Assembly (NCBI RefSeq): GCF_050920415.1
Contig: NZ_CP169309.1
Reading direction: 5' to 3' (one strand)
Length of the DNA: 64,000 nucleotides
Origin: Escherichia coli
GTDB lineage: Bacteria > Pseudomonadota > Gammaproteobacteria > Enterobacterales > Enterobacteriaceae
In this document: in pieces, positions 8,202-58,790 of the stretch
Layout of the letters: each line of letters opens with the position of its first letter
Numbering within the stretch: the stretch's first letter is position 1
Translations under genes and position numbers: made by a program
The notes under the pieces: model-generated
Databases searched by the model: none
Told to the model about the DNA's origin: nothing
What the model saw: the letters and a program-made list of their open reading frames with translations, nothing else

Positions 8202-8236
8202 AAAAGCAAAACGCCGACCAATGGTCGGCGTTTTTA
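8202..8236. terminator. bidirectional rho-independent terminator between the TRAP operon and rplI
   Basis: Perfect 8-bp stem CGCCGACC/GGTCGGCG (8212-8219 and 8223-8230), flanked by an A-run at 8202-8211 and TTTTT at 8231-8235. Confidence 0.8.
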
Positions 8237-9299: not shown

Positions 9300-9713
<414 letters not shown>

Positions 9714-10022
9714 TTATTCAGCCTCCTGTCTGGGTCAGCCGAATCCCGGGGAGGCAAGGAACGTGTTAAAGGTCGGCTGAAAAATGACGCGTTATAGTAC
9801 TGACATACCCCGTTAAACTCAAGGCCAGCCGACAAATAAATCTCATCTTTCACCAAATCGTACTAACACGCTGATTTGAAGTTCATCACACTTCATCATG
9901 GTGTTTTTTTGAACAACTGCATCAGAAATGGTCACCATCAACTTCTTTATCATTGATTAAAATTAAATCAGAAGATCACCACAAGAGGAGAGCACACAAA
10001 GTCAGCCGTCGAGGAGGTATCT

Positions 10023-18945: not shown

Positions 18946-20571
18946 TTATAAACATACTCCCCCCGTCGCCCGCAGCAATAAATCATTCTGGATCTGCTCT
19001 GACAACCGCACGCCGCCGCGCGTATCAAACATCATCTGACACCACGCCTGCGCCATTGGCGGAGAGGCATATTTCAACATTTGCGCGCCGCAACCCAGCA
19101 GGAATAGCTGACGAGTAATCTCTCGCCCCATTTCTTCAGCTGGCTTACGCAGTTGCTGCTGCAAACGACGAACCGCGCGATCAAAATAGCGATCCTGTCC
19201 TTTCACTTCCACAAATGCTTCTGTCAGCAAATCGTATACCCCAGCCTGCTTATTGAGAACGCGCAGCACATCGAGGCACATAATATTGCCAGAACCTTCC
19301 CAGATGCTGTTCACTGGCATTTCCCGATAAAGTCGCGGTAGTTCGCTCTCTTCGCAATAGCCAATACCGCCCAGCACCTCCATCGCTTCAGCCACAAACG
19401 GAATGCCACGTTTGCAGATAACAAATTTCGCCGCAGGCGTAAATAAGCGCGCCCACAGGGCTTCTTTGGCATCGGCACGCCGATCCCACGCTCGCGCAAG
19501 ACGAAACAGCAACGCTGTTTGCCCTTCAAGTTGGAGCGCCATGCGGCTTAAGACATGACGCATCAAAGGCTGTTGGATCAATGGATTACCAAAAACATGG
19601 CGTTGATGGGCATGATAAATCGCCAGCGAAAATGCACGGCGCATCATGGCATGGCTACCCAGGGCGCAATCAAAACGCGTCATCCCACCCATTTTCAGGA
19701 TCAGACGAACTCCTTCCCCTTCCTGCCCCAACAACCAGCCAATGGCATCCTGAAACTCCACTTCGCAGCTGGCGTTAGAGCGATTACCCAGCTTATCTTT
19801 CAGCCGCTCGAGGCGAATCGCGTTGCGTTGCCCGTCAGGCAAAAAGCGCGGCACAAAAAAGCAGGACAAACCGCCCGTAGTCTGCGCCAGCACCAGATGC
19901 GCATCGCTTTGCGGCACCGAGAAAAACCATTTATGCCCCACCAGCCGATAAGAGCCATCGTCCAGACGCTCTGCGCGGGTAGTGTTGCTCATCACATCGG
20001 AACCGCCCTGCTTTTCCGTCATGCCCATGCCAATCAACAAACCGCGTTTTTGCCCACCTGGCAATAAGTGGGAATCGTAGCGATCGCTCAACAGCGGCGT
20101 GGTCCAGTCCTGAAACGGCGCGGGTAACATCTGTAACAGCAATGGCGTGGCGGCAAAGGTCATGGTTATCGGACATAACGACCCTGCCTCAACCTGTGCG
20201 TGCAACATAAAACGCGCCGCGCGCGCCACAAATGCGCCGGAGCGAGCGTCTTCTTCCCAGGCAAGATTGTGCACCCGATTGGTACATAGCGCCTGCATCA
20301 GCAAGTGCCAGGCGGGGTGAAAACGCACATCGTCCAGACGGCGTCCTTGCGCATCGTAGCGCAATAATTCAGGCGGATTCACATTCGCCAGCCGCCCCAG
20401 TTCAAGAGATTCAGCCGTTCCTAACTGCTGACCAATACTGGCGAGAAAATCGCTATCCCAGCCAGCACCTTCACGCGTTACCGCTTCGCAGAGCGCGCCA
20501 TCAGACAGGTATAAGTTGCTGTTATTTAATGGTATAGGTTGATTAAAAACGGTGTGAGTTTGCCAGTGCAC
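18946..20571 (-). CDS. aidB: adaptive-response protein AidB (acyl-CoA dehydrogenase family)
   Basis: 541-aa product starting (GTG) MHWQTHTVFNQPIPLNNSNLYLSDGAL...; GTG at 20571 with GGAGGGAG RBS 7 nt upstream; the ORF-track TTG/ATG extension is rejected. Confidence 0.93.
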   Translation of the reverse strand: MHWQTHTVFNQPIPLNNSNLYLSDGALCEAVTREGAGWDSDFLASIGQQLGTAESLELGRLANVNPPELLRYDAQGRRLDDVRFHPAWHLLMQALCTNRVHNLAWEEDARSGAFVARAARFMLHAQVEAGSLCPITMTFAATPLLLQMLPAPFQDWTTPLLSDRYDSHLLPGGQKRGLLIGMGMTEKQGGSDVMSNTTRAERLDDGSYRLVGHKWFFSVPQSDAHLVLAQTTGGLSCFFVPRFLPDGQRNAIRLERLKDKLGNRSNASCEVEFQDAIGWLLGQEGEGVRLILKMGGMTRFDCALGSHAMMRRAFSLAIYHAHQRHVFGNPLIQQPLMRHVLSRMALQLEGQTALLFRLARAWDRRADAKEALWARLFTPAAKFVICKRGIPFVAEAMEVLGGIGYCEESELPRLYREMPVNSIWEGSGNIMCLDVLRVLNKQAGVYDLLTEAFVEVKGQDRYFDRAVRRLQQQLRKPAEEMGREITRQLFLLGCGAQMLKYASPPMAQAWCQMMFDTRGGVRLSEQIQNDLLLRATGGVCL

Positions 20572-20588
20572 TGTGTCTCCCTCCATCA

Positions 20589-20620
20589 ATGGCAGTCACC
20601 CTTAGTATGGTCACTGCCAT
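20589..20620 (-). promoter_or_regulatory. 12-bp near-perfect inverted repeat in the aidB upstream region
   Basis: ATGGCAGTCACC (20589-20600) and GGTCACTGCCAT (20609-20620) form an 11/12 inverted repeat with an 8-bp spacer, about 20-50 nt upstream of the aidB start. Candidate operator or 5'-UTR hairpin. Confidence 0.4.
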
Positions 20621-20654
20621 GGATTCCTGACAGAAAGAGATTGCTAAAACATTC

Positions 20655-21818
20655 TTACCCAGCAATGTAATGCGGAACGAAACGTGAGGTGTCTTTGGTG
20701 ATCAGCGTGTTATCTTCACGGATTCCCATTCCGCACGCTTCATCATCGACAATCCAGCTACCGATGAGTGTGTAGCTATCGCCAAATCGCGGCAGAGGTT
20801 GAAACGCCTGATAGATCATCGGTTCATCGGCGTAATCACCCTCAGCGTGGTCAACGACGTTATTCTGACCGTCGAAAATGGTGACGTTTCCGCCTTCGCG
20901 TGAGTAGATCGGTTTACGCACATAGCTTTCGCCAGCGGCAATCTGCGGTTTTTCGCCATCAAACCAGGATGCAAGTAGGTTAGGATGACCAGGAAAGAAG
21001 CGCCAAAGCAGCGGCATTAACCCTTTGTTGCTCAAGATACTTTTCCATAACGGCTCCACCCATTGCTCGCGGCGCTTGCGCAGCAGAGGACCGTTATCGT
21101 CACGCATCATCCATTCCAGCGGATACAGCTTAAATGCACGCTGGATGACATTATCATCAAGATCGGTCAGTACACCGCCGACGCCCAAACCGAGATCTTC
21201 AATGTAGATAAACCGTGACTCCTGCCCAGCCTGCTGAGCGCAGTCCTGCAAGTACAGCACAGTACTCCTGTCTTCGTCGGTATCCTGACAACAGCAGAAA
21301 TAAAACGGTTCCCGACTGTAAAGCTCGCTAAAACGCGAAATCAGGCGTTCCTGAATGGCATTGTACTGATCGGCATCACGCGGAATAATGCCGCTACGCC
21401 GCGCATCTTCCAGCCACAGCCACTGGAAATAAGCCGATTCATACAACGAGGTTGGCGTATCGGCGTTGTACTCCAGCAGCTTCACCGGCGCATTGCCACA
21501 CCAGGCAAAATCCATCCGACCATACAGCGAAGGATCGCGTGCGCGCCAGCTTTCAGCGATCACATCCCAGTACAGCGGGGGGATCGCCAGTTGCGTCAGG
21601 ATTTCTTCGTCTTGAACCGCACGATCCACCACCTCAAGGCACATCTGATGCAGTTCCGCAGTTGGTTTTTCGATCTGCTCTTCTATCTGACGCAGAGTAA
21701 AGCGGTAAGCCCGACTCTCATCCCAATAGATTTCATTGTCGATGATATGAAAGTCGAAACCGTTGTCGGCGGCGATCTGGTCCAGATCCCGTCGTACAGG
21801 AACGTTGTGTCTCAGCAT
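20655..21818 (-). CDS. yjfC: glutathionylspermidine-synthase-like ATP-grasp protein YjfC
   Basis: 387-aa translation MLRHNVPVRRDLDQIAADNGFDFHIIDNEIYWDESRAYRF...; last gene of the yjfI-yjfC operon. Confidence 0.92.
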   Translation of the reverse strand: MLRHNVPVRRDLDQIAADNGFDFHIIDNEIYWDESRAYRFTLRQIEEQIEKPTAELHQMCLEVVDRAVQDEEILTQLAIPPLYWDVIAESWRARDPSLYGRMDFAWCGNAPVKLLEYNADTPTSLYESAYFQWLWLEDARRSGIIPRDADQYNAIQERLISRFSELYSREPFYFCCCQDTDEDRSTVLYLQDCAQQAGQESRFIYIEDLGLGVGGVLTDLDDNVIQRAFKLYPLEWMMRDDNGPLLRKRREQWVEPLWKSILSNKGLMPLLWRFFPGHPNLLASWFDGEKPQIAAGESYVRKPIYSREGGNVTIFDGQNNVVDHAEGDYADEPMIYQAFQPLPRFGDSYTLIGSWIVDDEACGMGIREDNTLITKDTSRFVPHYIAG

Positions 21819-25808: not shown

Positions 25809-25840
25809 AAAAAAAAACCATCCAAATATGGATGGTTTTT
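25809..25840 (-). terminator. rho-independent terminator downstream of rlmB (bidirectional form)
   Basis: Stem CCATCCA/TGGATGG (25818-25824 and 25829-25835), with a 9-nt A-run on one side (25809-25817) and TTTTT on the other (25836-25840). Confidence 0.8.
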
Positions 25841-33910: not shown

Positions 33911-35191
33911 TTAGATCAAGTAATCGATCAACGCCGGTTCTTGTTTGCAGAGGCGACGCCAGTCAACGATCGGCATACGAACTTGCAGACTTACGCTGCC
34001 GTCCTCCTCCATCCACTCTTTTTCTATTGCCTGAAGCTGATAAAAACGACTTCTCAGACGCCCTTCCTGCGGCGGCAGACGCAATGTATGCTGCGCCACC
34101 TCGCCGGAAAGACGCTCCGTCAAAGCCTGAAAAAGCTGTGGTATCCCCGCTCCGGTCTGCGCAGAAAGCCAGACACGGATCGGTTTGTTCTCTTCGTCCC
34201 GATCAATACGCGGTTCAAAATCTTCCAGCATATCGATCTTGTTCATCACCAGCAGGGTTGGGATCTCGTGAGCATCGATCTCTTCAAGAACCGTATTCAC
34301 CGCTTCGATGTTTTCTTGTACTCGCACATCTGCCGCGTCAATGACGTGCAGCAGCAATGTGGCTTGCCGCGTCTCTTGTAACGTGGCTTTAAATGCCGCC
34401 ACCAGATCGTGCGGCAGGTGGCGAATAAACCCTACGGTATCTGCCAGCACGGTTTCACCGACATCCGCGACGTCAATACGCCGCAACGTCGGGTCGAGGG
34501 TGGCAAACAACTGGTCTGCCGCATAGACCCGCGCTTCGGTGATGCGATTGAAAAGGGTAGATTTACCGGCGTTGGTATATCCCACCAGCGAAACAGTAGG
34601 AACGTCGGCTTTGATACGCGATTGCCGCCCCTGCTCACGCTGTTTTTCAACTCTTTCCAGGCGCGACTGTATCTGCACGATGCGATTACGCAACAAACGA
34701 CGGTCGGTTTCGAGCTGGGTTTCACCCGGACCACGCAAACCGATCCCGCCTTTCTGTCTTTCAAGGTGGGTCCAGCCACGCACCAGGCGCGTAGCCAGAT
34801 GGCGCAACTGCGCCAGCTCAACCTGCAACTTACCCTCATGGGTACGCGCACGTTGGGCGAAAATATCTAAAATAAGGCCGGTGCGGTCGATAACACGACA
34901 CTCGCACAAACGCTCCAGGTTACGCTCTTGCGCCGGGCTCAGGGCATGGTCAAAAAGAACGACCGAAGCACCCGTCGCTTTGACAGCTTCCGCAATTTCA
35001 ACTGCTTTACCTTCACCTACAAAATACTTTGGGTGCGGCGCTTTACGGCTACCGGTAATCACCTGCAATGCTTCGACACCGGCGGAAGAGACCAGAGATT
35101 CAAACTCCTGGAGGTCTTCCATATCTTTGTCTTGCGTAAAATAGATGTGTACCAGTACCGCCTGCTCACCAGCATCATAACGGTCAAACAA
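33911..35191 (-). CDS. hflX: ribosome-associated GTPase HflX
   Basis: 426-aa translation with G-domain motifs ([21 protein letters not shown]). Confidence 0.96.
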
Positions 35192-35267
35192 GCGTATAAC
35201 CCTCTAAATAGATCAGCGGGGAACGCAGGATCGCTGGCTCCCCGTGTAAAAAAAACAGCATGAAACC

Positions 35268-35588
<321 letters not shown>

Positions 35589-35661
35589 TTATATGCTTAT
35601 TTGTACTTTGAACCTTTCGATTCTGAAAAAATTGCGCACGATACGTCTCAATTGTACACAT

Positions 35662-36612
35662 TCAGCCTGCGATAGCACCAACAACCTGTAATACTTCGTC
35701 ACGCGCCTGTTCTGGTTTTTCACTGTCAAGCCAGTGAACCCCTTCCCAACCACGCAGCCAGGTTATCTGCCGCTTCGCCAACTGTCTCGTGGCGCAAACA
35801 CCTCGATAAACCATTTCATCGTATGAGATTTCGCCTTCAAGGTAAGACCACATCTGGCGATAACCCACACAACGAATGGAAGGCAAGTCCGTATGCAAAT
35901 CTCCTCGGGCAAAAAGCGCCCGGACTTCTGCTTCAAAACCTGAAGCCAACATCTGATGAAAACGCTGCTCAATTCGTTGATGGAGCAGTTCACGGCTCGC
36001 CGGGGCGATGGCGAACTGATGCACCTGATACGGTAGAGCGTCTCCTGACGTTTGCGTCAGTTCCGTTAAAGTTTTACCCGAAATGAAAAAAACTTCCAGT
36101 GCCCGGGAAAGCCTTTGTGGATCATTTGGATGAATCCTTGCTGCCGCAACCGGATCTACCTCCTGAAGTTGACGATGCAATGACTCCCAACCTTGCTCTG
36201 CCGCCTGTTGCTCAATTCTGGCCCGTACTTCGGGGTCTGCCGACGGTAGCGGCGACAACCCTTCCAGCAATGCCTTGAAATACAACATCGTACCGCCCAC
36301 TAATAGTGGGATCCGCCCCGCCGCGGTGATATCGGCCATTTCCGCCAGCGCATCGCGGCGAAAATCAGCGGCCGAATAAGCCTGCGACGGATCGCGAATA
36401 TCCAGCAATCGGTGCGGCGCGGCGAGTAACTCTTCAGCGTTCGGCTTCGCCGTCCCGATATCCATCCCTTTGTAAATAAGGGCAGAATCAACGCTTATCA
36501 ACTCTACTGGTAAAATTTTACGCAGCTCAATGGCTAACGCCGTTTTACCGGAGGCCGTCGGCCCCATCAAAAAAATCGCCTTAGGCAGGCTCGCCTTACT
36601 GATATCACTCAT
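35662..36612 (-). CDS. miaA: tRNA dimethylallyltransferase MiaA
   Basis: 316-aa translation with P-loop GPTASGKT; the 3' part of the gene is known to carry hfq promoters, not individually resolved here. Confidence 0.96.
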
Positions 36613-38452
36613 CTTTCAGGGCTTTTATCGCCGGATGTAAATCAACAGATTGTAACAGCCCACCCGGCGGCGTTTTCACAAGTTGCGGACATAACCGTTC
36701 CACGTCCGCCAGCAGGGTGATGGCCTGTGCCATTGACCACTGCGCATGTTCGCTCATCAGATTTCGTGCAATCCACTGCGCAATATTGCCAGGTTCGAAT
36801 ACGGACTGCTTCGCCAGGTAGCCTATCAGTTCAGGAATCAAGATTTGTAAATTTTGTTGGCGTAAGGGTAAAGGCACGGCCCTGATGGTCACATACTGTG
36901 CATCGGACTGGAAATCAATACCCAATTCCGCCAGGGCAGACTGCGCTTTTTCTAATGCCGATTTTTCTTCGCCAGAAACTTTTAGCCGCAACGGAATAAG
37001 CAACGGCTGGGCGCAAACTGGCGTTTCACCCGGCGTCAACTGCGCCTGACGCAGCCAACGTTCTGCCACTGGCAGGGCTAAAAGTGAAATGTTGCCGTCG
37101 CGCTCCAGCAACGCACAGTCGGAATGGACGATAGTCAGTACCCGACCAAAACTCTGACTGTTCGCCGCAAGCGCTGGCTCCTGCGGTTCAGGTGCTTTTG
37201 GTTTTTGCATCGGCGCAGGCGTTTGCAAAAGCTGGCGATACACTTCACCTTGCTGTTTCTGGTAGCCTGGCTGCGCATTTGGCCAGGGGGCAGCCGGACG
37301 ACTGCCTGAGGCGGGCGCAGGAGTGTAGCGCGGAGCTACTGGCTCACGAACTGCCGGTTCAGCAAAATGATTGCGCCCCGCCGCCACGCGGTTTTCCGGG
37401 ATGGCGCGCGGTGCGGGTTGTGGTTCATCGTCCAGCGGTAGCGGCGTTTCCAGTTGCTGTTGTAGCACGCTCAGCACGCCCTGATAGATAAAGTCATGCA
37501 CCAGACGCGACTGATGGAAACGCACTTCGTGTTTGGCAGGGTGCACGTTGACGTCCACCTGATGTGGGTCGATCTCCAGATACAGCACAAATGCCGGTTG
37601 CTGATCGGCCCCCAGTTTGTCTTCACAGGCCTGGCGGATCGCGTGATTGATCAGGCGATCGCGCATCATGCGACCATTCACGTAGCAATACTGAATTTCT
37701 GCCAGTGTGGGCGTGGTGTGGTTTGGATCTGCCACCCAACCGCGCAGCGTGAGATCGCCGTGCTGCCATTCAATCGCCAGCGCATGTTCGAGAAAAGCGG
37801 TGCCGCAAATCGCGCCTAAACGCCGTTCTTTTTGCCCGCCTTCCGGCACTGCGCGGTACTGGCGAACTATTTTGCCGTTATGCGACAGATTGATAGTGAC
37901 GTCGAAACGCGCCAGCGCAATGCGGCGGATGATTTCATCAATATGGTTAAATTCGGTTTTCTCGGTACGCAGGAATTTGCGCCGCGCCGGGGTATTGTAG
38001 AACAGATCCAGCACTTCCAGCGTCGTTCCCACCGGATGCGCCGCCGGTTTAACCGTCACGTCCATATCGCGCCCTTCGGCATACGCTTGCCATGCCTCCT
38101 GCTGCTCTGCGGTGCGCGAAGTGAGCGTCAGACGGGAAACTGAACTGATACTCGCCAGCGCCTCACCGCGGAACCCCAGGCTGATAATAGCTTCGAGATC
38201 GTCCAGAGAGGCGATCTTACTGGTAGCATGACGCGCCAGCGCCAGCGCCAGTTCATCTTTTTTGATACCGCAGCCGTTATCACGAATGCGGATAAGTTTC
38301 GCCCCACCGCGTTCGATATCAATATCAATACGCGTCGCACCCGCATCGAGGCTGTTTTCCACCAGTTCTTTGACTACCGACGCAGGTCGCTCGACCACCT
38401 CACCTGCGGCAATCTGGTTCGCCAGTTGTGGCGGTAAGACCTGAATTGGCAT
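36605..38452 (-). CDS. mutL: DNA mismatch repair protein MutL
   Basis: 615-aa product starting [39 protein letters not shown]... at the ATG at 38452; 3' end overlaps miaA by 8 nt. Confidence 0.96.
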
Positions 38453-38461
38453 CAATCATCC

Positions 38462-39799
38462 TTAGTTTGGCAGCGTGCGATCTGGCGTCGTCACCGTGCT
38501 GGCCGTTTGTGCCGTTGCCCCCTGCGGCGCAGATTGCATCGGATGCGCAAGGAAATAATTGCGCAGGCCTTTGTAAATGGCTTCTGCCAGCTGTTGTTGG
38601 TAATCGTCGCTCGCCAGCAAACGTTCTTCGCTGTTGTTGCTGATAAAACCGGTTTCGACCAGTACTGATGGGATATCCGGCGAACGCAGAACGCCAAGGC
38701 TGGCATGTTCTGGTCGACGTTTATGAATTTCGCCGATGCGTTGCAACTGACTGATCATACTGGTCGCCACATCATACCCTACCCGCTGGGAATGACCGAA
38801 CTGTAAATCCAGCACCGCCTGGCTTAAATAGGGGTCAGACTGACTGTTCGCCAGCACATCGCCCGCTCCGCCCAGCAGCTCCGACTGTTTCTCATGCTGC
38901 TCCAGCCAGCTGGCCATTTCGCTGTTGGCGCGACGGTTAGAGAGCACCCATACGGAAGCGCCAGTCGCACTGCGGTTCGGTGCGGCATCAGCGTGAATCG
39001 AGACGAGGAAATTGGCGTTTTGCTTACGTGCCACATCGCTGCGCCCCATTACCGAGATAAAGTAATCCCCGTCACGGGTTAAAACGCCCTTAAACATCGG
39101 ATCATCATTGAGTAAAGTACGCAATTTACGTGCGATGGCGATGGTGACATTTTTCTCCCGCGTACCACCAGGGCCGATAGCGCCAGGATCCTGACCGCCG
39201 TGTCCGGCATCAATAGCGATGATAATTTTATCGCCTGTGTTAGCCGTCGCGCGCGCTGCCGGACGCGTTACCGTATTACTGCTGATAACACCCGTAGTGC
39301 GGTTACTTTCCGTTTTAAACGGATTGCGCGCCGGTTCGCTGACGCGCGGTGCGACAACCGCAGGCGTTTCAACGCGCTTCGCAACCACTGGCGGCGGTGG
39401 AGGCGGTGGCGGCGCATCAGCGTTAATCGTAAAGACGACAGTGTAATTGCTACCATTCTGCCGCTTCACCGCTTCGGTTTTACCGTTTTCGGTGAGATCG
39501 ACCACCAGCCGTAGCGTTTGTGCATCTTTAGGCGTTCCAGAGCGAATCGCCTTCACCAGATTATTACCGCTGAACAACAACGGTAGCCCCTGAATCACGC
39601 CCGTTTGTTTGATATCGAGCGCCACGGTGCGTTTGTTTTGATGGCTAAACGCGTAATCAGGATCGCCAGTAAAACTCAATGTTATTCGCGCCTGTTGATT
39701 ACCGTTAGAAACCTGAATATCAGAGAGCGTAGCGGCGCCAGCCTGCGCGCACAGCAGCAGCAACGTCGCTACCAACCAATTTCTGATGCGATACATCAT
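38462..39799 (-). CDS. amiB: N-acetylmuramoyl-L-alanine amidase AmiB
   Basis: 445-aa product starting [29 protein letters not shown]... (signal peptide), with an eight-proline run at residues 130-137 (nt 39389-39412). Confidence 0.95.
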
Positions 39800-39817
39800 C
39801 CCGCCACCTTTCAAAGG

Positions 39818-41796
<1,979 letters not shown>

Positions 41797-43205: not shown

Positions 43206-43281
<76 letters not shown>

Positions 43282-43316: not shown

Positions 43317-43392
<76 letters not shown>

Positions 43393-50050: not shown

Positions 50051-50147
50051 GAGATAATCGGTCGCTTAATTTCGCTATAGCGCATACGAAATCCCGCTAA
50101 TTCCCTGTCATTGCGCCCTATCGTCAGGCAGACGATAGGGCATCGGG

Positions 50148-58616: not shown

Positions 58617-58634
58617 ATCAGGCTCCGGAGAATT

Positions 58635-58677
58635 GGGGCCGTCCCCGGTGAAAAGAGGCGTTTGCAGGTCGTCCTGC
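58635..58677 (-). promoter_or_regulatory. guanidine-II riboswitch (mini-ykkC motif) in the gdx leader
   Basis: Two tandem hairpins with ACGR loops on the minus-strand RNA: GCAGG-ACGA-CCUGC (58664-58677) and GGGG-ACGG-CCCC (58635-58646), separated by 17 nt and sitting just upstream of the gdx RBS. Confidence 0.8.
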
Positions 58678-58748
58678 AAAGCTGATGGTTGAACGGGTAT
58701 TTTGCCAGGTGGCAGGGGAATTTCAACTATTACCTTAGTGACTATCGC

Positions 58749-58783
58749 AAAAAAACAAACGGCACGACACAGCTGTCGTACCG
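58749..58783 (-). terminator. rho-independent terminator downstream of ecnB
   Basis: Stem CGGCACGACA/TGTCGTACCG with one mismatch (58760-58769 and 58774-58783), followed on the minus strand by a U-run (plus-strand A-run 58749-58756). Confidence 0.7.
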
Positions 58784-58790
58784 TTATTGC

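Follow-up and report, generated by a model that had tools for sequence, protein, structure and literature searches.

The inverted repeat located between yjfC and aidB in the analyzed window (the whole stretch of 64,000 nt of Escherichia coli DNA) is, as deduced from RNA folding, the upper stem of one long RNA hairpin of approximately 25 bp that is predicted to extend across the 83-nt yjfC-aidB spacer, and not a stand-alone operator. For this hairpin, fold-back insulation as in IS10/IS50 is tentatively favored, with a confidence slightly short of even: in RNA reading through from yjfC the aidB ribosome-binding site would be masked, and in RNA initiated at the aidB promoter it would not.

Organization of the yjfC-aidB Spacer

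Gene yjfC is the co-directional gene located immediately upstream of aidB, and the spacer between the two genes comprises 83 nt. The features of this region, all on the minus strand, are as follows.

20655..21818, minus strand: yjfC, encoding a protein of the glutathionylspermidine synthase family (387 aa), with the stop codon TAA at 20657-20655 (ORF list and RefSeq annotation of identical loci)
20641..20653, minus strand: Ada box AATGTTTTAGCAA, composed of the A box AAT, N6 and the B box GCAA, at -56 to -44 from +1 and 5' of the hairpin
20628..20640, minus strand: 5' strand of the lower stem, UCUCUUUCUGUCA (anti-SD tract), forming 13 pairs in the folds, 100% paired in nine distinct Escherichia sequences
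20621..20627, minus strand: internal loop GGAAUCC of 7 nt in the folds, with a G/T polymorphism at 20627
20609..20620, minus strand: 5' arm of the repeat, AUGGCAGUGACC (upper stem), the last two bases of which are -13C and -12C of the promoter
20604..20609, minus strand: -10 hexamer CATACT of aidB (-12 to -7), lying across the end of the 5' arm and the apical loop
20608-20601, minus strand: apical loop AUACUAAG of 8 nt, holding five of the six -10 bases
20597, minus strand: transcription start of aidB (+1 = G), the fourth base of the 3' arm, leading to a 5' UTR of 26 nt
20589..20600, minus strand: 3' arm of the repeat, GGUGACUGCCAU (upper stem), invariant in all Escherichia sequences sampled
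20576..20588, minus strand: 3' strand of the lower stem, UGAUGGAGGGAGA, containing the aidB Shine-Dalgarno (SD) sequence
20584-20579, minus strand: SD sequence GGAGGG of aidB, as read from the sequence
18946..20571, minus strand: aidB coding sequence with the GTG start codon at 20571-20569, encoding 541 aa (translation and annotation)

On the sense strand, the spacer and its bordering codons read TAA-G-AATGTTTTAGCAA-TCTCTTTCTGTCA-GGAATCC-ATGGCAGTGACC-ATACTAAG-GGTGACTGCCAT-TGATGGAGGGAGA-CACA-GTG. The yjfC-aidB locus is single-copy and was found in 5424 of 5426 complete E. coli genomes. Occurring at one place per genome, the repeat lacks the multi-copy character of REP/BIME elements, and no Rfam family matched at the spacer. 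Elsewhere in the window, Rfam matches at gathering score were obtained for the RpsF leader (9693-9777, minus strand), for two tRNA genes with equal scores located approximately 110 nt apart (43209-43281 and 43320-43392, minus strand) and for a guanidine-II (mini-ykkC) riboswitch (58634-58680, minus strand).

Furthermore, a 25-codon ORF (MAVTILRVTAIDGGRHSALANSHRF; 20543-20620, minus strand) opens at the ATG of the 5' arm (20620) and overlaps the aidB start out of frame. This ORF of 25 aa is probably spurious: its start lies upstream of +1 and is either ATG or GTG with the A/G polymorphism of the stem.

The Inverted Repeat and the Predicted Long Hairpin

On the plus strand, the repeat is composed of ATGGCAGTCACC (20589-20600), the spacer cttagtat and GGTCACTGCCAT (20609-20620). 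It was described in an earlier note on this DNA as a near-perfect 12-bp inverted repeat, and it is real: 11 of 12 positions are complementary across a spacer of 8 nt, and the repeat finder extended it to 16 nt at 88% (20585-20624). It is located 18-49 nt upstream of the GTG of aidB, which is encoded on the minus strand. The earlier note was right in placing it before aidB, but the site is the aidB core promoter itself and not a position upstream of the promoter. Considered as a bare 12-mer, the repeat is statistically unremarkable, about one being expected by chance per 64 kb; repeats of 11/12 or better gave eight matches at five loci in the 64-kb window, shuffled sequences leading to an expectation of 1.5. 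Further copies of its half-site in the window do not exceed chance. The other inverted repeats of at least 11/12 in the window were detected at 8207-8233, 25812-25839, 50114-50142 and 58758-58785; those at 8207-8233 and 25812-25839 have A-runs and T-runs at their flanks and look like bidirectional intrinsic terminators.

In a 101-nt fold (-36 kcal/mol), a lower stem of 13 bp is followed by an internal loop of 7 nt, an upper stem of 12 bp and an apical loop of 8 nt. One G.G mismatch reduces the upper stem to 11 pairs, giving 24 pairs for the whole hairpin. Within the lower stem, UCUCUUUCUGUCA (20640-20628) is paired with UGAUGGAGGGAGA (20588-20576) by means of nine Watson-Crick and four G.U pairs, and the SD sequence is included in this pairing. 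Folded from stop to start codon, the spacer reaches -33.1 kcal/mol (z -4.06) for the window allele and -35.3 kcal/mol (z -5.55) for the K-12 allele, and none of 500 shuffles was as good in either case. As background, z-scores of -4 or lower were obtained for 2 of 400 random 83-nt windows. The raw minimum free energy (MFE) is not exceptional, 369 of 25,568 windows (top 1.4%) being at -33 kcal/mol or lower; only the composition-corrected z-scores of the spacer are exceptional, and the larger structure is not a product of chance. At approximately 34000-41500, the window contains on both strands a cluster of its most stable 83-nt folds (-38 to -46 kcal/mol), and no Rfam family was reported there.

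Moreover, the two strands of the E. coli spacer fold differently, with -33/-35 kcal/mol for the sense strand versus -22/-25 kcal/mol for the antisense strand. This advantage of approximately 10 kcal/mol results from the G.U pairs, and the better folding of the sense strand points to RNA rather than to duplex-DNA symmetry.

Promoter and Transcription Start Site Relative to the Repeat

The first base of the aidB -10 element was reported to be a C (-12C) (PMC3141248), and the only -10 hexamer in the spacer beginning with C as described is CATACT at 20609-20604. In the supplement of bioRxiv 10.1101/2020.02.05.936344, the aidB start is given as NC_000913.2 4412272 (+) with the -10 at 4412260. Position 4412272 maps to G20597 of the window, 12 nt after the C of CATACT, and the register was cross-checked by the remark in the same supplement that 4412248 is a C, corresponding to c20621 of the window. 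The Ada-box consensus for ada and aidB is AAT(N)6GCAA (PMC3788762, PMC4437013); the Ada box AAT-N6-GCAA and the -10 CATACT are both present exactly as published. The likely -35 element of aidB is CTGTCA at 20633-20628, within the anti-SD tract and with an 18-nt spacer. Promoter function could account for the conservation of this pyrimidine tract, which overlaps the -35 region.

Mapping of the aidB start relative to the repeat, a check proposed in the earlier note, placed the published +1 (G20597) in the 3' arm and the -10 across the junction of 5' arm and loop. Because +1 sits in the 3' arm, the mRNA of aidB itself cannot form the hairpin: the promoter-initiated mRNA has a 26-nt leader with only 9 nt of one arm. 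A fold of 52 nt (20591-20540), covering most of this leader and beginning 6 nt short of +1, gave -7.9 kcal/mol and a z-score of 0.07, which is like that of shuffled sequences. A 5'-UTR hairpin affecting translation, as the same note had suggested, is impossible for the promoter-initiated mRNA on these grounds; the idea was right in kind, but only for read-through RNA from yjfC. An SD-sequestering leader of the rpoS-leader or RNA-thermometer type was likewise rejected, the two arms not lying together within aidB's own mRNA.

Regarding further transcriptional signals, a simple sigma-70-like promoter scan found none, the real aidB promoter itself scoring 8/12. A terminator scan of 20300-21000 returned no terminator-like sites, thus none between yjfC and aidB. 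Genome-wide start-site and 3'-end supplements contain no aidB or yjfC entry at the locus. Published 3'-end data (PMC7815308 supplement) list a 3' end at NC_000913.3 4415796 (-), which corresponds to approximately 19050 on the plus strand of the window and is antisense to the 3' part of aidB.

Predicted Accessibility of the aidB Ribosome-Binding Site

For E. coli, the predicted unpaired probability of the SD sequence amounts to 0.00 in read-through RNA versus 0.58-0.78 in native RNA. Corresponding values are 0.00 versus 0.59-0.77 for the C. sedlakii group and 0.00 versus 0.29 for S. salamae, and the contrast predicted for S. enterica is small (0.23 versus 0.30). When the upstream half was shuffled, the G-rich SD sequence was still mostly paired (mean unpaired probability of 0.29). 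Since shuffled partners also pair the SD sequence, its masking alone barely exceeds the chance level in E. coli (fraction 0.02-0.06), and in most of approximately 25 genera it is not significant against shuffled upstream halves. An anti-SD tract as a general feature across these genera, which was striking at first, was largely gone in the same comparison and was dropped.

Variation of the Hairpin within Escherichia

Ten Escherichia sequences (nine of them distinct), including divergent clades and E. albertii, were compared. None of the ten differs in the 3' arm or in the SD strand. Four substitutions were observed in the stem (20628, 20620, 20615 and 20611), all of them A to G opposite U and all keeping a G.U pair; the other three changes (20627, 20603 and 20601) are located in the internal loop or in the apical loop. 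Counted as pair-by-sequence cells, 24 pairs in nine distinct sequences are paired in 216 of 216 cases. This substitution pattern fits an RNA constraint, the events being few and all one-sided.

The window carries a minority allele with G at both 20601 and 20627; of 5151 matching genomes, 359 share it. In K-12 and the majority of E. coli, these two positions, neither of which is paired in the hairpin, are occupied by T. In K-12, the T in the loop allows extra pairing (CCAUA/UAUGG-like), adding 2 kcal/mol of stability.

Predicted Hairpins in Other Genera

To cover a broader taxonomic range, aidB loci from approximately 30 Enterobacterales were compared. The -10 motif CCATACTTA is kept upstream of aidB in most of these loci, and the 5' arm and the Ada box were found only in Escherichia. 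E. coli, Salmonella and the C. sedlakii group have a common synteny consisting of yjfM-yjfC, a spacer of 83-84 nt and aidB. At the same place, Salmonella features a hairpin composed of UCAAUGGCGC-AGUCA, the loop UGACCAUACU and then UGACU-uca-GCGCCAUUGA, and the hairpin of the C. sedlakii group is made up of UUCAA/GGC/GCGAC paired with GUCGC/GCC/UUGAA. Both hairpins have an anti-SD:SD stem at their base, with CATACT placed within or at the loop. The spacer z-scores are -5.19 for S. enterica, -4.86 for S. salamae and -2.63 for member L093 of the C. sedlakii group; for member L096, a value of -4.11 was obtained over 72 nt.

Results obtained with RNAalifold revealed a 9-bp anti-SD:SD stem kept in 8 of 8 aligned sequences. 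Changes in its left strand are mostly U to C or C to U opposite G, with U opposite every A, and S. enterica has one G.G mismatch in this stem. The flanking parts (from the anti-SD tract to the -10 and from the -10 to the SD sequence) are only about 50% identical between E. coli and Salmonella. No clean double compensatory change in register was found at any pair, either in the Escherichia rows or in the alignment of eight sequences. Among six arm-swap chimeras, four were weaker by 7-15 kcal/mol and two were as stable as the natives. Two further loci in which yjfC adjoins aidB, namely Siccibacter (z -0.84) and the MAG L017 (z -0.03), have no significant hairpin, and 17 sampled lineages with another gene upstream of aidB (an intrinsic terminator being present in several of those checked for one) reach z-scores of only +0.5 to -2.25. 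The three positive lineages are related and hence do not represent independent samples. With respect to conservation across E. coli and relatives, a point raised in the earlier note, the repeat is kept in Escherichia, and a predicted hairpin is located at the corresponding site in Salmonella and the C. sedlakii group, although the arm sequences differ in the latter two.

Several other properties of these loci were noticed. In Citrobacter amalonaticus (L094) and in L006, L007, L012, L016 and L034, no yjfI-yjfC block is present, and the gene preceding aidB is rlmB (SpoU methylase) or a different one. These yjfC-less lineages usually feature a clear intrinsic terminator (AAGCCATCC...GGATGGCTTTTTT) before aidB. 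In C. amalonaticus, the -10 CATACT is also gone and the CTGCCATTGAAGGAGGG leader is still there. Moreover, the leader motif tGCCAtTGAnGGAGGG (20589-20576 in the window, between +1 and the start codon) is conserved in a large number of genera, and better so than the remaining spacer; it could act as a signal for translation or as a target of an sRNA or a protein.

At the place of the Escherichia Ada box, TTTTGTGAYC is present in Salmonella, Citrobacter, Enterobacter, Yersinia, Rahnella, Hafnia and others (compared in loci L088, L093, L006-L013, L015, L023-L028, L032 and L073). A 16-bp site built on the TGTGA would be centered at -40.5 to -42.5 from the predicted start, which is the class II CRP position, although conservation is limited to one half-site. 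Regulation of aidB by Ada may have arisen within Escherichia (TTTTGTGATC to TTTTAGCAATC).

Comparison with Known Systems and Proposed Mechanism

Davis, Simons and Kleckner (1985) and Schulz and Reznikoff (1991) reportedly described fold-back inhibition, that is, protection from outside activation, in IS10/Tn10 and IS50/Tn5. The aidB spacer resembles IS10/IS50 in having an inverted repeat with the ribosome-binding site in its 3' arm and an own promoter starting between or inside the arms, so that only external transcripts can fold, which in IS10/IS50 are translationally silent. In E. coli, Salmonella and the C. sedlakii group, the 3' arm of the long hairpin includes the ribosome-binding site of the gene that would be protected, and the E. 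coli start at G20597 lies inside the repeat, so that the own mRNA is devoid of the 5' arm. Unlike the IS10/IS50 case, aidB is a chromosomal stress gene beside a co-directional host operon and not a transposase gene at the end of an element; furthermore, its -10 box itself is located in the apical loop, and the aidB case is known from sequence and predicted folds.

A related SD-masking stem is known from the left end of IS200 tnpA (PMC4513863). There, the stem-loop is located inside the tnpA mRNA's own 5' UTR, and protection from outside transcription is provided by a separate terminator (PMC4513863), whereas aidB's own mRNA lacks the 5' half of the hairpin and no terminator is present. Like an intrinsic terminator, the aidB structure is a stable hairpin directly following a stop codon, that of yjfC. 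Unlike a terminator, it has no U-tract, the tail UGAUGGAGGG... being within the stem and followed by CACAGUG, and it features an 8-nt loop and a stem broken by a 7-nt internal loop. The known regulators of the aidB promoter (Ada box, sigma-S -10 with -13C/-12C, AidB at the UP element) act in the same 83-nt region, and the hairpin is not among the described features that were found. In the searchable literature, to which the primary promoter papers do not belong, no description of the hairpin/repeat architecture of the aidB spacer was found.

Based on this architecture, fold-back insulation would proceed as follows. The 3' half of the predicted hairpin would be the aidB leader with its SD sequence, and the 5' half would lie upstream of the aidB start site. 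RNA started at the aidB promoter (G20597) would lack the 5' half and therefore have its ribosome-binding site open. RNA entering from yjfC, no terminator being located in between, would carry both halves, fold back and mask the aidB ribosome-binding site. Synthesis of AidB would thus depend solely on initiation at its own promoter, which is controlled by Ada and sigma-S. We infer that Rho would then probably terminate the untranslated read-through RNA, which would be shortened as far as the hairpin.

Alternative Explanations for the Hairpin

Double-stranded RNA of about 25 bp is of sufficient length for RNase III, and the same RNA hairpin might serve the upstream operon instead, as a 3'-end stabilizer, as a processing site for RNase III or another enzyme, or as the point at which trimming stops once the yjf...C transcript has been terminated by Rho; the SD sequence would then be in the stem only since the 3' half of the short spacer is the aidB leader. 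A strong, conserved hairpin at the end of yjfC that is not a U-tract terminator, found in three of five sampled lineages with yjfC next to aidB, speaks in favor of such a role. It is nevertheless considered rather unlikely, as the base of the stem covers the SD sequence to within a few nucleotides of the start codon in all three lineages and, within the 5' half, conservation is highest in the anti-SD tract, which fits masking of the ribosome site better. Both roles are compatible, and a processing hairpin could be a linked or an alternative function. A palindrome without any selected function, arising by chance or as a by-product of halves that are constrained separately (promoter spacer on the left, leader on the right), is judged quite unlikely. 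It would be in accordance with the chance level of 11/12 repeats, the unexceptional raw MFE, the common pairing of the SD sequence with shuffled partners and the missing hairpin in Siccibacter and L017, but it is at odds with z-scores of -4 to -5.5 at the homologous site in E. coli and Salmonella despite the divergent flanks, and with the fact that all stem substitutions seen keep a wobble pair. A regulated leader, in which an unmapped promoter in yjfC would produce a long aidB mRNA with an SD-masking hairpin that, like the rpoS leader, opens in response to an sRNA, temperature or a protein, would explain why a conserved structure masks the SD sequence; however, the only start on record (4412272) is located inside the hairpin, the promoter scan found nothing upstream and no Rfam family matches, rendering this explanation very improbable.

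Two further explanations address the repeat at the DNA level. The repeat is not known to fit the consensus sequences of LexA, CRP, FNR, NtrC/sigma-54, PdhR or FadR. A palindromic operator over -10/+1 for a dimeric repressor, either AidB itself, Lrp or another factor, would occupy the classic repressor position over the core promoter; AidB represses its own gene according to the literature, and Lrp represses sigma-S-dependent aidB transcription according to the title of a cited paper. Against it, the preferred targets of AidB described in the literature are UP elements upstream of -35, the variation of the stem is of the G.U type and breaks DNA symmetry, and the window holds no additional half-site copies beyond chance. 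In addition, the spacing of ATGGC..GCCAT changes from 27 bp in E. coli to 32 bp in Salmonella and the left ATGGC is lost in the C. sedlakii group, which argues against a rigid dimer operator. Such an operator is thus improbable, and the suggestion of the earlier note that AidB binds the repeat found no support, AidB being placed at UP elements upstream of -35 in the literature and the half-sites not being conserved. Supercoiling-driven extrusion of a cruciform around the -10, switching the promoter off or on, would be suggested by an inverted repeat bracketing this element. Artificial promoters with a -10-bracketing inverted repeat were reportedly built by Horwitz and Loeb in 1988. Cruciform formation at aidB is, however, extremely improbable: the loop of 8-10 nt and the mismatches disfavor extrusion, and the lower stem leans on four G.U pairs that are absent in DNA, the antisense strand being weaker by 10 kcal/mol.

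Implications for aidB and Chromosomal Operon Boundaries

It is conceivable, although rather doubtful, that the nesting of the aidB promoter within an SD-masking hairpin is deliberate and that this arrangement constitutes an operon boundary without a terminator, in which silenced read-through RNA would be a substrate for Rho and Ada/sigma-S RNA would be fully translatable; this would represent the first chromosomal example outside transposons. The promoter of aidB is a textbook promoter for studies on Ada and sigma-S, and in reporter work on aidB, fragments including or excluding 20640-20609 could change the translation of transcripts initiated upstream. If the hairpin insulates, it would explain how a damage- and stationary-phase-specific gene can be located 83 nt behind another operon without a terminator, and a mechanism of insertion sequences would be extended to ordinary chromosomal genes. 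The arrangement also provides a simple sequence signature for genome scans, in which transcription starts within the 3' arm of a hairpin masking the ribosome-binding site, and, if the nested arrangement is true, the device may be common between tightly packed co-directional genes.
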